In this document: piece after piece, positions 16,665 to 23,928 of the stretch
How positions within the stretch are numbered: the first letter of the stretch is position 1
Layout: every line of letters starts with the position of its first letter
Source of the DNA: Clostridiales bacterium
GTDB lineage: Bacteria > Bacillota > Clostridia > Christensenellales > CAG-314
Assembly: GCA_022508305.1 (NCBI GenBank)
Contig: JAFLVM010000001.1
Location: forward strand, 962,341 to 1,026,340
Length of the DNA: 64,000 nucleotides
Direction: 5' to 3'
Program-made: the position numbers and the translations under genes
Notes under the pieces: generated by a model
What the model was told of the DNA's origin: nothing
What the model saw: only the letters and a program-made list of their open reading frames with translations
Databases searched by the model: none

Positions 16665-16694
16665 AAAAAGGAAGCGATTTCGCTTCCTTTTTTG
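16665..16694. terminator. Bidirectional terminator hairpin (copy 1 of the GGAAGCG/CGCTTCC hairpin)
   Basis: aaaaaGGAAGCGatttCGCTTCCtttttt, with an A-run and a T-run on either side. Confidence 0.75.
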
Positions 16695-16718
16695 TTGAGT
16701 TAGTTATTTGTATTTTAG

Positions 16719-18140
16719 TTATTTTATTGTTTTGTCTTTACGTTGCTTTCTTGGCAGGTTTGGCTTCAATCTTTTCATTTCGCGGTATTTGATAACAACC
16801 TGTATTCCAATTCCAACAATGAACAGTAGTGTGAGAATGATAGGAATGGACAAAAACTCCAATCTTTCCCATACGGTAAAGTCAAACAAGTCTTTAATAA
16901 TCTTACAGCAGGAATTGAACATTGTAATTGAGCCGATAAACGACGTTATCAAAAACACCCAAAACAACATTTTAGTTTGACGATATTCTTTGAAGCTTTT
17001 TAGCTGTTTTTGATAGGTTGTTTGAATTTGCGACAGCGAATTTATTTTGCTTTGGAGTTCCTTTTCAAATACGTCCGTCTTTTGCGTGCTTCTTGCGTAG
17101 TCGTAAAATTCGTTTATGTGGTTCATCGAAGAAGGACACTTGAAATTGCACCTTGTTTCGTACAGCTGCGATTTGCCTATCGTCTTCGCCACCGCCGTCG
17201 AATCGGATTCGAGCATTTGTTCGTTTATTTCGGAGTACTTGGCGTTTATTTTCGAAACCTGCGATATACGCTTTAACAGCGTAAACTTTTGATTGAGCGT
17301 AAGCAAATACAGGTAAAAGTAGTTGTTTCGCGCCGCGTGAATAAATTGAGTTTGGAAAAAGTCGTTGGTCTTTTCGTCGTCGACGAGGTAAGATAGGTTT
17401 ATCATTGCGCTGTCAGAGCCGCACCAATGACTGTTGGTAAAGGGCGAATAGCACTTGACTACGTCCGTCTGGTAGGATTCCTTGAAGTTGTACGCGCCGT
17501 GACTTAGAATCTCGTCAAAGTCCTCGTCCTTTTGATCCAAAACAACCGCAGAAAACAGTATTGGCTTGAGGTCGTAGAAGGATATTCCATCCCGTCTGTC
17601 GAAACCGTACACGGCGTCGAACGTTTTGAATATGGGCATTACTACGCTTTCCAGCGTAAATTCGCGATATTCGTCCTTGCCTGTTTTTACACGTAGCAGA
17701 TTTTCCTTGGATTTCAACTCGGCCAGAAAATAGTTTGCGTTGAGATAATCGTTGGTTTTCTCCTCGGCGTACTCCCAGTCGTATTCCAAGAATGCGACGT
17801 TGGTCTCAAACAGGTACAGCGACACGCTTTTGAGTTTGATTGACAGCTGTTTGTTGCTTTGCTTGCCTCTTACCGACAGCAAAATGGTGGAGTTTGCCCC
17901 AACAAGGTCGTAGTTTGCGCGCGCCGCGTCGTTCAACGTCAGCGCCCGCACGATACATTGCTCGGAGTTTGCGTTTTGCTTTTGATTGATGTGTTCAAAC
18001 AGGTGATTTGTCTTGAAGGTCTTTTCAATCCAAATTCGTTGTCCGCTACTTGTTACTTGATTGACAAACTGTTCCTTGTCTGCAAGTTTGTAGGCGAAGG
18101 GAATGATTTGTTTGCTAAACTGTTTAATAATATTTGCCAT
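16719..18140 (-). CDS. Uncharacterised protein with CorA-like topology: ~380-aa soluble domain, long helix, two C-terminal TM helices, basic tail
   Basis: 473 aa. TM1 MLFWVFLITSFIGSITMF, TM2 FLSIPIILTLLFIVGIGIQVVI, tail KYREMKRLKPNLPRKQRKDKTIK. No canonical GMN motif. Starts 10 nt after the upstream NTPase gene. Confidence 0.6.
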   Translation of the reverse strand: MANIIKQFSKQIIPFAYKLADKEQFVNQVTSSGQRIWIEKTFKTNHLFEHINQKQNANSEQCIVRALTLNDAARANYDLVGANSTILLSVRGKQSNKQLSIKLKSVSLYLFETNVAFLEYDWEYAEEKTNDYLNANYFLAELKSKENLLRVKTGKDEYREFTLESVVMPIFKTFDAVYGFDRRDGISFYDLKPILFSAVVLDQKDEDFDEILSHGAYNFKESYQTDVVKCYSPFTNSHWCGSDSAMINLSYLVDDEKTNDFFQTQFIHAARNNYFYLYLLTLNQKFTLLKRISQVSKINAKYSEINEQMLESDSTAVAKTIGKSQLYETRCNFKCPSSMNHINEFYDYARSTQKTDVFEKELQSKINSLSQIQTTYQKQLKSFKEYRQTKMLFWVFLITSFIGSITMFNSCCKIIKDLFDFTVWERLEFLSIPIILTLLFIVGIGIQVVIKYREMKRLKPNLPRKQRKDKTIK

Positions 18141-18150
18141 AACGTACCTT

Positions 18151-21100
18151 TTATTTTATTAAATCGTATCTTTCTGCAATTTGGACGCGCATTGAAGCAG
18201 CTCGGGGCTTGTTCTTGTTTGCTTCGTCCATGTGGTTAAGTTTTGTGGATGCTTCGTCAAGATATTTGCGACAGTTTGTGTAGTCGCCCATGTCGAAGTA
18301 GATTTTACACAAATGGTAGTAACCTTCAACGATAAACAACTTGTTGACAAGCAGGTTCTCCCTTTCCTTTTGCTCTAAGTAACGTATCGCCTTCCACGCC
18401 GCCTCAATGGCGTCGTCAAATCTGTTCATTACTCCGTACAAAACGGACAAACGGCGGTAGTTGTAAAACAGTTCCTTGACGTAGCGTACGTAGTTGTCTT
18501 GCACGCACTCTTCGAACAACTCCGTTGCGCGCGTCATGTATTCAAGCGCCTTTTGCTCGTGTCCTGCAATTTGCGTTAGGGTTTTGCCTGTGTTGGACAG
18601 CCGCGCAGCATACAGCCATTTTTCCTCGTTAGTGGAGTAGTGTTCTAAGCTTTTTAGCGCCTGCACCTCGTAGGGAAGAGATTTTTCCCACTGCTTGACG
18701 CTTTGGTAGTAGTAGCCGCGTATTGATGCGTGATAGTTTAAGCTTATCGGCGTAAAGGGGTAGTTGCGACTCTTTAACTCGTCAAAAATCTTGTCAGCGT
18801 AGTCAGCGTATACAAGTATTTGCTCGTACTGCTTCAAATCGGAAAGCATATACAGGTACACAGGCTCCATCGAGAAGTAATATTCAAACTTCTCGTCGTC
18901 AGTGAGCGGAAGCTTTGCCAGTATCTCAAATGCCTTGCGATAGTCTTCAAGTGCTAATACTGCGTCTCTTTGCGCGAATCGGAAACCGCCGCTAAGCATA
19001 TAACTGCGCGCAATGGCAAGCTGTTGCTCCTTGGAATGCTTGTCGCAATGCTTTGCTGCGTAGCGCAAAAGAGCTTGTTGATACATTATGTTGCGGTCGA
19101 GTATCTGTTCTTCAAAGTTGTCGCTTACGTCAATTAACTTTTGATTTAGTAGCAGCGAGTGCGTTGTTTGCAGCGCGCGCTTGTAGTTTTCGGTGGAGTC
19201 GAGCAATCTGAACGTACGCGCTACGTTCAACAGATAGGCAAAGTATGTCATTGCAAACCTGTCCGAATAGTCTACGATGGTGTTCTCTCCCAAAATAAAC
19301 AGCATTTTGCGGTACAGCTCCTCTGCCATTTCAAGAGTTTCCTCTTTCATATGCTCCTTGATGTACTGTATGTTGTCCAAGTGAGATATGCGGTAGGCGT
19401 TGCCGTAGTTGGTTCGCTTCACCGTCAAGAACATTCGTATAGTGTTCAAGAAGCCCATGAATGCCAGCGACAGATTGTCGTTTGCAACCAATGCGGCAAG
19501 GTCGTGAATAGTTAGGTAGTCGTCCGTCAACGTCAGCGCAACCATAAGCCGCGAAAACTGTGTGAAATACTTGTCGCCGTAATTGTTTTTGAGTGACGCA
19601 AAGTACTCGTCTAACAGCGATTTGTTGCTGTGAGTGAGCAGCGCATTGCAGTCTATTACCTTTGCACCCTGCTCCAATAGATTGCTGGTTTTAATTTCCA
19701 ACAGTTCCTTTAATTGGCGCAGGTACAGCATGCTGTCGTTGGAAATTTCCGTCAGGAATTTCGCCTGCTTCGTCTCGTCGAGCGTAAATTGAGCTTTTTT
19801 GTGACACCTTGCGCGCAGTGGGGCAATTATGTGTTCGACAAAGTACCGTTCTTTGAGTTTGACGAAATCTTTGTCGTTTACGTGTAGCTCCAGCGTGGGC
19901 AAGTGCGACAGCCCGTGCAAAACGTTTCTTGTAAAGTAGGTTACGTTGTCGTTATCGCATAGCGTACGCGACGTAAGCATTACGTACACCCCCTCGTCCA
20001 ACATATCCGGTGTGGGAATGTAATCGGTGATGTTTTGAGCAGCTTGCGGGCGAAGTTCGTCCAGGCCGTCAATTATGAACAGCAGGTTTTCACCGCCGTA
20101 AGCAATACTTTTAGCGGTGTTTAACGCCGTTGCCAACTCCATGCGAGGGTCTGCTCCCTGCTGATTGGGGAAGTAAAAGCTGCCTCGCATTGTGTCGCCC
20201 TTGTCGTTCAGTTTCAACTGTCTGTTTACCTCTTGGGTAAAGTCACTTACCGTGCTGCCGTAGGTGGGGTTGATGTAGTAGGTGCGTACCTTTGTGTCGG
20301 GCAGTTTGATGCTGTTCATTTGGAAGGGGTCGAGCGCGCGAATGAGGGTTGATTTGCCCATTCCCTTTTGCATAAGCAGCATAAACACCTTGTCCTCGTT
20401 TTCCAGGCGTTGCTCAATCCACTGCGTTATGAACTTCGGCTCGATAAAGTCCGTTACGTTGAGGACGTTGTTGCTTACGGCAATTTCCGTGTCCAGTATT
20501 ACGCTGTCGTAAACCCCGGTATTGTCCGCCTGCCCGTTGCACATCTCGTCAAATACGTGCGTGGACTGAATGTCGCGCTTTCCGCGTGGGTATTCTACAA
20601 GGTGCAGGTAGGATTTCTTGGAAATAAAGTTGTCGTAGAAGTAGAGCCCGTCGTCAACGAGATAGAAGAAGGGGCGCAACTCAACAGTCTTGTCGCCTAC
20701 GTGGGCGTAAGGCTTGCCAACGCGGTTTGCAATCAAGTTGTTGTGTCCTACGAGTTGGACGGATTGAGTACTGCTGTCTATTGTTAGCCTTATTCTGTCG
20801 TAGTGGGGCTTTACTTGGGTAAGAAAATCGGTAATACCCTGTATGCGAGCGAACAAATCCTCGTACAAGTTCTCGTCGCCCATTTCTCGCGTTGCGCCGT
20901 GACCTATGTTTTGATTACGCCAGGATACAACTTCGTTTTTGTTGCAGAATGAGTTGGTAAGCTTTGCCACCTCGTACAAATCGCTAAGTTCGGCAACGTT
21001 TTTGATTTTGTTTTGCATTTGACGGAGGTAGTTATGCCAGTCGCCCATGGAGTTGCGAGTGGTGACGATGTCGACGAGCAGTTTGTCCGTTTCGTCCGTC

Positions 21101-21387
21101 TTGTTGTGGAACATGTAGCACGCGCACAGCAGCACGGGAAATTTGATGAATACCTCGTAAATATCCTTTATTTGAAGTATCGCGCCGTAAACCTGTTTTT
21201 GCTCGATGAAATTTTTTAGTTTGTGATATTCGTAGGCAATGAGGGAATTGAAATTGTTTTCCAATTCTGTTTTGAAGTAGGTTTCATCGCTAAGCAAAAT
21301 TTCATTCCACACCTTGCCGCACGAGGGGCATCTCAGTTCCCCATCGGCATAGACCAGTGCCTGATTGCATCGGTTGCATCTTACCAT
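18151..21387 (-). CDS. Zinc-ribbon / NACHT-like STAND P-loop NTPase with C-terminal TPR-like repeat array
   Basis: 1078 aa. CNRC-x12-CPSC ribbon, Walker A QKGMGKST, Walker B LLFIIDGLDE, MLTSR (NACHT-type). The C-terminal ~500 aa are helical repeats (e.g. EGYYHLCKIYFDMGDYTNCRKYLDEA). Confidence 0.75.
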   Translation of the reverse strand: MVRCNRCNQALVYADGELRCPSCGKVWNEILLSDETYFKTELENNFNSLIAYEYHKLKNFIEQKQVYGAILQIKDIYEVFIKFPVLLCACYMFHNKTDETDKLLVDIVTTRNSMGDWHNYLRQMQNKIKNVAELSDLYEVAKLTNSFCNKNEVVSWRNQNIGHGATREMGDENLYEDLFARIQGITDFLTQVKPHYDRIRLTIDSSTQSVQLVGHNNLIANRVGKPYAHVGDKTVELRPFFYLVDDGLYFYDNFISKKSYLHLVEYPRGKRDIQSTHVFDEMCNGQADNTGVYDSVILDTEIAVSNNVLNVTDFIEPKFITQWIEQRLENEDKVFMLLMQKGMGKSTLIRALDPFQMNSIKLPDTKVRTYYINPTYGSTVSDFTQEVNRQLKLNDKGDTMRGSFYFPNQQGADPRMELATALNTAKSIAYGGENLLFIIDGLDELRPQAAQNITDYIPTPDMLDEGVYVMLTSRTLCDNDNVTYFTRNVLHGLSHLPTLELHVNDKDFVKLKERYFVEHIIAPLRARCHKKAQFTLDETKQAKFLTEISNDSMLYLRQLKELLEIKTSNLLEQGAKVIDCNALLTHSNKSLLDEYFASLKNNYGDKYFTQFSRLMVALTLTDDYLTIHDLAALVANDNLSLAFMGFLNTIRMFLTVKRTNYGNAYRISHLDNIQYIKEHMKEETLEMAEELYRKMLFILGENTIVDYSDRFAMTYFAYLLNVARTFRLLDSTENYKRALQTTHSLLLNQKLIDVSDNFEEQILDRNIMYQQALLRYAAKHCDKHSKEQQLAIARSYMLSGGFRFAQRDAVLALEDYRKAFEILAKLPLTDDEKFEYYFSMEPVYLYMLSDLKQYEQILVYADYADKIFDELKSRNYPFTPISLNYHASIRGYYYQSVKQWEKSLPYEVQALKSLEHYSTNEEKWLYAARLSNTGKTLTQIAGHEQKALEYMTRATELFEECVQDNYVRYVKELFYNYRRLSVLYGVMNRFDDAIEAAWKAIRYLEQKERENLLVNKLFIVEGYYHLCKIYFDMGDYTNCRKYLDEASTKLNHMDEANKNKPRAASMRVQIAERYDLIK

Positions 21388-21468
21388 TGCCGTCCTCCGT
21401 TCATTAGTAAAGTCGACTAAATTTAATTATATCATTAGTAAACGCGTATTTCAACCCCCTAACGCAAC

Positions 21469-21497
21469 AAAAAAGGAAGCGATGCATCGCTTCCTTG
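21469..21497 (-). terminator. Terminator hairpin for the PlsC-like gene (copy 2 of the GGAAGCG/CGCTTCC hairpin)
   Basis: Plus strand aaaaaaGGAAGCGATGCATCGCTTCCtt. On the minus strand the stem is followed by a T6 run. Confidence 0.7.
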
Positions 21498-23822: not shown

Positions 23823-23850
23823 AGTAAAGCATCCACGAGATGTCGTATAT

Positions 23851-23928
23851 CGCGGGGTAGAGCAGTCTGGTAGCTCATCGGGCTCATAACCCGAAGGTCG
23901 TGTGGTTCAAATCCCGCCCCCGCAACCA
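23851..23928 (+). tRNA. tRNA-Met (CAT), initiator type
   Basis: Near-identical to the E. coli tRNA-fMet pattern: CGCGGGG...GGGCTCATAACCC...CCCCGCAACCA. It has the C1:A72 mismatch and three G-C pairs in the anticodon stem. I could not pair the T-arm cleanly by eye. Confidence 0.85.

Follow-up and report, generated by a model that had tools for sequence, protein, structure and literature searches.

Until now, CorA-type effectors have been described solely as accessories to CRISPR systems of types III and VI. The CorA of type III-B systems is a membrane effector that binds SAM-AMP and is required for immunity (PMC10600005), and the CorA found with type VI-B1 systems is reported to carry divalent ions across the membrane and to down-regulate interference by the HEPN RNase Cas13b (PMC11662929); the way in which such proteins open and halt the cell is not yet settled. 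In the NLR-like Avs (AVAST) and bNACHT proteins, an output domain at the N terminus is followed by a central STAND P-loop module with the motifs DGxDE and TSR and by a large C-terminal array of repeats that diverges fast and acts as the sensor. HEPN domains are documented in fusions with a STAND ATPase plus TPRs and in fusions with zinc ribbons (PMC3710099). Here, we analyze a two-gene operon, A–B, in a 64-kb stretch of DNA (the window) from a metagenome-assembled genome (MAG) of a Clostridiales bacterium, which is predicted to pair a NACHT-type STAND nucleoside triphosphatase (NTPase) with a divergent CorA-like membrane protein. From an architecture and a population behaviour like those of bacterial NLR-like immune proteins, we infer that A–B is a credible candidate for a defence, possibly anti-phage, module.

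Gene A shares with Avs, AVAST and bNACHT proteins the layout described above, together with a patchy distribution and a variable chromosomal position. It differs in that no PADLOC model of a named system matches it or 17 members of its family, in that its N-terminal domain (N-domain) is a family-specific combination of a zinc ribbon with a helical and beta module for which we found no solved relative, and in that a separate, conserved membrane-protein gene accompanies it. The Swt1-like HEPN family (Anantharaman et al. 2013, PMC3710099) offers a second likeness: an Rx5H motif in a helical domain, combined with a STAND ATPase and TPRs, with zinc-ribbon fusions listed as well. HEPN_AbiU2, another HEPN family, gives weak matches over the same motif in the A family, but at 15-17 bits against a cut-off of 26.8 membership is unproven.

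Judged by homology, the closest published relatives of B appear to be the CorA effectors of type III and type VI-B CRISPR systems. With those of III-B and VI-B1 it has in common a large soluble N-terminal domain, a stalk, two C-terminal transmembrane (TM) helices, homology to CorA-like models of PADLOC, and a place as accessory partner of a sensor, which in one case is the HEPN RNase sensor Cas13b. In contrast to these, the partner in A–B is a STAND NTPase, and B's own match is weak (E 1.8e-5); no cas10, Cas13, CRISPR array, NrN or SAM-AMP lyase lies beside any A–B pair examined. Canonical CorA, ZntB and Mrs2 channels share the fold and TM topology of B, but B has TMFN in place of the GMN motif, no Pfam CorA match, and a larger and different soluble domain, and its gene is tied to an NTPase gene instead of being a solitary housekeeping gene.

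Both modules are thus of kinds already known, A being like the NLR-like STAND sensors and B like the accessory effectors of CorA type. What appears to be new is that the two are paired, that A has a family-specific N-domain, and that this CorA lineage is used independently of CRISPR. The pairing of a STAND/NACHT protein with CorA is absent from PADLOC v2 and we found no paper describing it in the literature searched, in agreement with the original prediction, made from the DNA sequence, which did not recognise the pair as a named system. The annotation of the source MAG says no more than 'AAA family ATPase' for A and 'hypothetical protein' for B.

Gene A combines a STAND NTPase core with a divergent repeat array

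The original prediction described A and B as an operon, and its coordinates, gene lengths and 10-nt gap all proved correct. Both open reading frames were confirmed on the minus strand, and the intergenic spacer reads TAA-AAGGTACGTT-ATG. The genes, and the regions of A from its NTPase core onward, are as follows.

18151 to 21387, minus strand: gene A, 1078 aa; predicted zinc ribbon, conserved N-domain, NACHT/NPHP3_N-type STAND NTPase and TPR array
16719 to 18140, minus strand: gene B, 473 aa; predicted divergent CorA-like protein with a soluble alpha/beta domain (residues 1 to ~350), a stalk helix (355-419), two TM helices and a basic tail
19948 to 20442, minus strand: P-loop NTPase core of A, residues ~316-480, from a Pfam scan and homologue alignment
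18154 to 19227, minus strand: TPR/helical repeat array of A, residues ~721-1078, the fastest-diverging region and presumed sensor

Alignment of 17 homologues placed invariant residues in each motif of the NTPase core. Walker A (QKGMGKST, 20347-20370) retains G342, G344 and K345 throughout, Walker B (LLFIIDGLDE, 20056-20085) retains D440, G441, D443 and E444, and the MLTSR(T) motif at 19966-19980 retains T472 and R474. The P-loop motifs and the NACHT/STAND reading of the original prediction are therefore borne out, but its span for Walker A needed correction, as 20347-20364 covers GMGKST only. In Pfam, the window protein itself stays below threshold for both relevant families, with 20.0 bits for NPHP3_N (cut-off 24.8) and 16.8 bits for NACHT (cut-off 26.7). 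The NPHP3_N cut-off is exceeded by the homologues P0011 (30.1 bits), P0014 (28.7 bits) and P0015 (33.4 bits), with weaker matches to NACHT. On these motifs and profiles we assign A as a NACHT-type STAND NTPase with a TPR array.

The helical array foreseen at the C terminus was recovered as matches to Pfam TPR_12, TPR_2 and MalT-like TPR, and its profile matches kinesin-light-chain TPRs (E ~1e-12). Mean pairwise identity in the A family is 20.5% in the TPR region, compared with 37% over residues 1-200 and 44% in the P-loop core, and such rapid divergence of the TPRs is the pattern expected of a diversifying sensor. A third homologue search, with a diverse alignment, added almost nothing.

The N-terminal domain of A carries an invariant HEPN-like motif

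Upstream of the NTPase core, A contains a conserved region that we divided by alignment and by an AlphaFold2 (AF2) model.

21319 to 21378, minus strand: zinc ribbon CNRC...CPSC, residues 4-23 (C4, C7, C20, C23), from the alignment; Pfam zinc-ribbon matches are weak
20800 to 21246, minus strand: helical part of the N-domain, residues 48-196, from the AF2 model (mean confidence, pLDDT, 80) and alignment
20893 to 20922, minus strand: WRNQNIGHGA, residues 156-165, with invariant W-R-N-x-x-I-x-H-x-A, a HEPN-like Rx5H motif
20563 to 20793, minus strand: beta-rich subdomain, residues 199-275, with invariant G214 and D252, from the AF2 model and alignment

The ribbon is present as originally described, with C4, C20 and C23 invariant in the 17 homologues and C7 conserved in at least 90%; an NCBIfam scan of A returned weak zinc-ribbon noise only. 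Apart from the P-loop, no part of A is better conserved than the N-domain. The N-terminal 325 residues of A contain 22 invariant columns, among them W156-R157-N158-x-x-I161-x-H163-x-A165, and the invariant residues of the helical part further include Y54, G68, Q72, K74, D75, E78, S113, G115, W117 and D177.

An R-x5-H motif preceded by a polar residue is the signature of HEPN RNases. R157 and H163 are spaced within the Rx4-6H range of HEPN proteins and lie in the helical domain. Sub-threshold matches to HEPN_AbiU2 occurred in three of 13 homologue N-domains (best E 0.0023), and in full-length scans of P0009 and P0014 they fell exactly over the motif, at 15.3-16.8 bits. The domain had originally been left unassigned; this stands in that no fold in the PDB or BFVD matches it, but the invariant Rx5H motif now gives it a candidate identity. 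We put forward a HEPN-like output domain as a hypothesis rather than an assignment, and regard its being right or wrong as roughly evenly balanced.

Every A homologue keeps the N-domain with its invariant motif, including those at about 15 genome loci that have no B-like neighbour. Because the domain is retained where no B lies nearby, A probably has an output of its own.

Gene B is a divergent relative of CorA

The membrane-proximal features of B are listed below.

16896 to 16970, minus strand: TM1, residues 391-415, with conserved IGSxTMF; TMFN lies at 16914-16925, where CorA channels carry GMN
16785 to 16856, minus strand: TM2, residues 429-452, P433 invariant, from the sequence and AF2 model
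16722 to 16784, minus strand: basic tail, residues 453-473, from the sequence

The AF2 model of B (pLDDT 85) comprises a beta-rich soluble domain, a 65-residue stalk running into TM1, a short loop and TM2. When this model was searched against the PDB with Foldseek, ranks 1 to 46 were all CorA or CmaX and an Mrs2 channel stood at rank 48, with Thermotoga maritima CorA and CmaX as the best matches (best E 7.7e-4, probability <= 0.97). TM-scores were low (~0.2), the monomer model bending differently. A sequence profile of B retrieved nothing from the PDB, and B has no match to Pfam CorA (PF01544). The GMN motif is absent from B, which reads IGSITMFNS at the equivalent position, and most close relatives of B also lack it. 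The topology originally described (soluble domain, long helix, two TM helices and basic tail, CorA-like and without GMN) is in this way confirmed by sequence, AF2 model, Foldseek and PADLOC together.

The PADLOC evidence comes from the 'CorA-like' model PDLC01175, which matches residues 35-175 of the soluble domain, and from the wider B family, which a profile search of 1.84 billion proteins resolved into 942 cluster representatives. PADLOC CorA-like models are matched by 37 of 50 sampled family members (PDLC01043, best E 2e-22), and Pfam CorA by 5 of the 50 (best E 9e-17). Model numbering and neighbouring models suggest that these PADLOC models derive from CRISPR-accessory sets. Invariant basic or polar residues of B are K54, R74, R91, K143, K220, R330 and K365. 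From its sequence and modelled fold, then, B is assigned as a divergent member of a CorA-derived effector or partner family and not as a housekeeping Mg2+ channel. A scan of metagenomes for B produced four loci only and no new context.

A and B are linked across genomes

Adjacency of A and B homologues, which the original prediction proposed as a check, recurs in at least 12 distinct loci at varying chromosomal sites, and pairs were found in many gut and soil Firmicutes. Both gene orders occur, and the pairs reach down to 23% identity for A and 17% for B.

A then B: window/L051, L010, L011, L012 (= L006-8)
B then A: L014/L009, L015, L016/L043, L026, L044/45
A, GH29 alpha-L-fucosidase, B: L017, L018, L019

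The identity matrices of A and B agree with each other (Pearson 0.80, Mantel p = 2e-4). Each locus has different neighbours, and the chromosomal position changes even between relatives that are 70% identical: in L010 the pair lies between uvrC and dut, in L012 it has an AAA_14/DUF4143 gene as neighbour, and in L009 a Schlafen/AlbA_2-type regulator. Two A paralogues each are present in Ureibacillus xyleni (L021 and L022, on the same contig) and in the MAG Lapin-012 bin2 (L012 and L020). The varied neighbourhoods, the paralogues and the co-divergence of the two genes point to a mobile, functionally coupled pair. The original prediction named an ordinary CorA orthologue unlinked to A as an outcome contrary to it; B lacks GMN and is linked to A in at least 12 loci, and this linkage is not obligate.

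At L014 (the same locus as L009; 5581-10228), an A of a second clade, 26% identical to window A, stands beside a B of the window clade (47-49% identical). This swap of partners suggests recombination between modules.

Two A homologues adjoin larger CorA-like proteins. In Neobacillus drentensis (L031:3185-6292) the neighbour is a 1035-aa protein whose C-terminal half is CorA-like; it keeps GMN (GFLGMNIPF), scores 26.9 against the 27-bit cut-off of Pfam CorA and reaches 98.9% in hhalign, and it carries an N-terminal extension of ~500 aa without assignment. In a Syntrophomonas MAG (L023:4111-6759) the neighbour is an 882-aa protein, again CorA-like in its C-terminal half (PADLOC CorA 7e-17).

In one subclade of A, a GH29 alpha-L-fucosidase gene directly follows A and overlaps its end (L017:10216-11253, L018:3395-4435, L019:10194-11237, L020:10212-11249, L013:10239-11276). 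The enzymes match the Pfam family at 3e-56 and are 62-94% identical between loci.

Members of the B family also have metabolic neighbours. A B relative in L003 adjoins a DUF4874/DUF4832 glycosidase-like gene, a distant family member is translationally coupled to a SAM-dependent methyltransferase (L050:5568-8377), and another follows an AdoMet-decarboxylase-like gene (L046:6104-8506). As the SAM-enzyme neighbours come from two loci only, the association may be due to chance.

The cassette has its own promoter-like site and is bracketed by inverted hairpins

The window carries the following elements around A–B.

21426 to 21454, minus strand: promoter-like site TTGAAA-17-TATAAT with extended TG, 11/12 matches, by consensus match only
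16665 to 16703, plus strand: left hairpin together with its tail (AAAAAGGAAGCGAttTCGCTTCCTTTTTTGTTGAGTTAG), terminator of a convergent 215-aa membrane-protein gene and cassette boundary
21459 to 21496, minus strand: right hairpin together with its tail (minus-strand sequence AAGGAAGCGAtgcaTCGCTTCCTTTTTTGTTGCGTTAG), which terminates the plsC-like gene upstream and bounds the cassette

The promoter-like site sits 39 nt 5' of the start ATG of A, and a GGAGG ribosome-binding site precedes that ATG by 6 nt. The hairpin element (GGAAGCGA-loop-TCGCTTCC plus a TTTTTTGTTGNGTTAG tail) is 38 nt long, the hairpin being followed by TTTTTTGTTG(A/C)GTTAG. Exactly two copies occur in the 64 kb where none is expected, one on each side of the pair and mutually inverted, which upholds the original report of duplicated bracketing hairpins. 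Each copy is the terminator of its outward flanking gene, and the left one, as a palindrome, probably also terminates A–B. With its own promoter-like site and bracketing terminators, A–B has the makings of an insulated transcription unit.

The hairpins could derive from an ancestral bidirectional terminator that was duplicated when the cassette inserted between convergent genes; alternatively, they could be terminal inverted repeats of the inserted cassette. The element was not found in 38 other related loci. We rejected for the window an origin as repetitive extragenic palindromic (REP)-like elements, as just two copies are present here and none in those 38 loci.

Leaving A–B aside, the outer flanking genes would be two convergent housekeeping genes. 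The description of the pair as wedged between convergent genes holds for these outer flanks, but A–B itself runs in the same direction as the upstream plsC-like and MFS genes. Its portrayal as visibly more AT-rich than its surroundings was not upheld: the cassette has 45.6% GC against 46.7% for the window, at the 17th percentile of same-size windows, its GC content at third codon positions (GC3) equals that of its neighbours, and only B is low in GC (42.2%). With unremarkable GC and native GC3, we rejected recent horizontal transfer as inferred from composition. In an empty-site test, the flanking plsC-like protein occurred only on contigs with the same arrangement, and the genes beside the L010 pair, which is 70% identical, were absent from the window. 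No integrase or other mobile-element gene was seen near the cassette or near a tRNA-Met gene (23850-23927), which lies 2.4 kb upstream, beyond the plsC-like and MFS genes.

A proposed mechanism and its alternatives

Our preferred reading is that A–B is an independently transcribed conflict module, most likely anti-phage, in which an Avs/NLR-like sensor acts with a membrane partner; in its full mechanistic form we give it about an even chance of being correct. By analogy with Avs proteins, the TPR array would bind an invader-derived protein, and NTP-dependent oligomerisation of A would then cluster its N-domains. The clustered N-domains would constitute the output of A, our best guess being a HEPN-type RNase activated by dimerisation. 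Activated A would in addition open or deregulate a pentameric CorA-like pore, either by touching it directly or by way of an N-domain product, and the resulting ion leak or depolarisation would arrest or kill the infected cell. B would in this scheme be a second, modular effector, comparable to CorA in its ancillary role in type III CRISPR. We infer the signalling step from A to B from their genetic coupling alone.

A number of observations weigh against this reading. PADLOC gave no match to window A at E <= 1, and across the 17 A-family members it returned a single match to a generic TPR-repeat model and no named defence system; PHROGs had nothing useful for A, B or the N-domain, and no B relative or copy of the cassette was found on viral contigs. 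The window locus lies among housekeeping genes and not in a defence island. A PADLOC scan of 142 neighbours at 28 loci, run without a control set, establishes no enrichment. Its matches mixed defence-type genes with housekeeping false positives. The former included matches to a C3a193-like helicase, PDC-S20, PDC-S01, MzaA, MkoA/C, mad3/mad8 and WYL; the helicase, a 1079-aa protein convergent with the A homologue of Ureibacillus L021, matches C3a193 ('possible alternative Cas3') over its full length at 4e-165. The latter included a 1478-aa DEDDh exonuclease-domain protein and an 853-aa protein matching a reverse transcriptase/PolA model, which from their sizes are presumably PolC and PolA. At roughly half of the genome loci of the A family, no B-like gene lies within 7 kb, and B relatives also occur alone or with DUF4145/HEPN-like, glycosidase-like, SAM methyltransferase or AdoMet-decarboxylase-like genes. 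Given such unrelated partners, B is better seen as a modular partner than as an obligate half, and the coupling as not obligate. An ordinary-looking GH29 between A and B in L017-L019 is explained by no defence model. For the N-domain, Foldseek searches of the PDB and BFVD found no HEPN or other match (nothing below E 0.08), and hhalign comparisons with a DUF4145 protein and a HEPN_Cthe2314 protein from related loci were negative.

The persistence of the N-domain and its motif in all A homologues, with or without B, is also what one would see if A were by itself a complete immune protein, Avs-like and with an intrinsic nuclease-type effector at its N terminus, while B modulated or restrained it through divalent cations or by tethering it to the membrane. 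The metal-transporting CorA of type VI-B1, which lowers Cas13b interference (PMC11662929), is a parallel for such a modulator, and the L031 partner still has the canonical GMN. Against this, GMN has been lost from B and from most of the proteins closely related to it, the CorA of type III CRISPR is toxic as well as required for immunity (PMC10600005), and the tight translational coupling and co-divergence of the two genes fit an integral partner at least as well; we consider this explanation unlikely. A non-immune role, in which the TPRs sense an endogenous cue and A gates a CorA-derived channel as part of a STAND-regulated ion-channel or membrane-stress module, strikes us as quite unlikely. 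Many STAND NTPases are regulators, with non-defence clades interspersed among defence clades (PMC13581612), and the housekeeping surroundings and native GC3 of the window locus, the metabolic enzymes beside distant B-family members and the fucosidase embedded in one A subclade would all suit such a role. It sits poorly with the patchy distribution, with positions that shift between relatives as close as 70% identical, and with within-genome paralogues, partner swapping and a hypervariable repeat domain; moreover, Pfam and NCBIfam detected no DNA-binding or other regulatory output domain in A, and its N-domain has a nuclease-like invariant motif.

We also considered a second-messenger relay, in which the N-domain of oligomerised A makes or releases a small, diffusible nucleotide-, SAM- or RNA-derived ligand that opens B by binding its soluble domain, and in which hydrolases present in some of the operons degrade the signal. 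The precedent is CRISPR CorA, which is gated by SAM-AMP and always accompanied by a degrading enzyme (PMC10600005). Within B, the match to the CRISPR-type CorA model falls in the soluble domain, which also has many invariant basic and polar residues; among distant family members, one is translationally coupled to a SAM methyltransferase and one comes after an AdoMet-decarboxylase-like gene, and a GH29 hydrolase stands between A and B in L017-L019. Yet Pfam, NCBIfam and Foldseek detected no cyclase, nucleotidyltransferase or Cas10-like domain in A, most A–B operons, that of the window included, have no degrading enzyme, and the two SAM-enzyme loci may be coincidental. We rate the relay as very unlikely. 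The same low probability attaches to its more specific, CRISPR-independent form, in which the N-domain would be an enzyme and not a plain toxin, its ligand would gate the pore, and GH29 would serve as an 'off switch'; if true, this would be the first relay in bacteria from an NLR through a second messenger to an ion channel.

Should the preferred reading of a sensor with a membrane partner hold, CorA effectors would be a portable immune output, and A–B a CRISPR-free two-gene system in which to study gating by protein contact or by ligand. The bacterial NLRs of gut and rumen Firmicutes, in which few defence systems have been put to the test, would also gain a new family, one with a novel N-terminal domain. 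Even without an immune role, A–B would be an uncommon example of an ion channel under the control of a STAND ATPase.

Other neighbours of the A and B families

Two A homologues from Bacilli, at loci with no B-like gene, have other membrane proteins as neighbours. In L033 (10684-12666) A adjoins a 660-aa protein with two C-terminal TM helices, which we tried as a CorA-like candidate and rejected as it has no detectable CorA likeness, and in L025 (5779-6969) the start of A is overlapped by the gene for an 8-TM protein of the LtrA family. Conversely, L001 (6310-11523) has a B relative (33% identical) and no A. The B relative lies in a co-directional run of genes for a helix-turn-helix protein, a 459-aa protein, B itself, a 359-aa protein with a weak DUF4145 (HEPN-like) match and a DUF697 protein, with a TIR-LRR gene farther downstream; this locus may represent a different CorA-based module.

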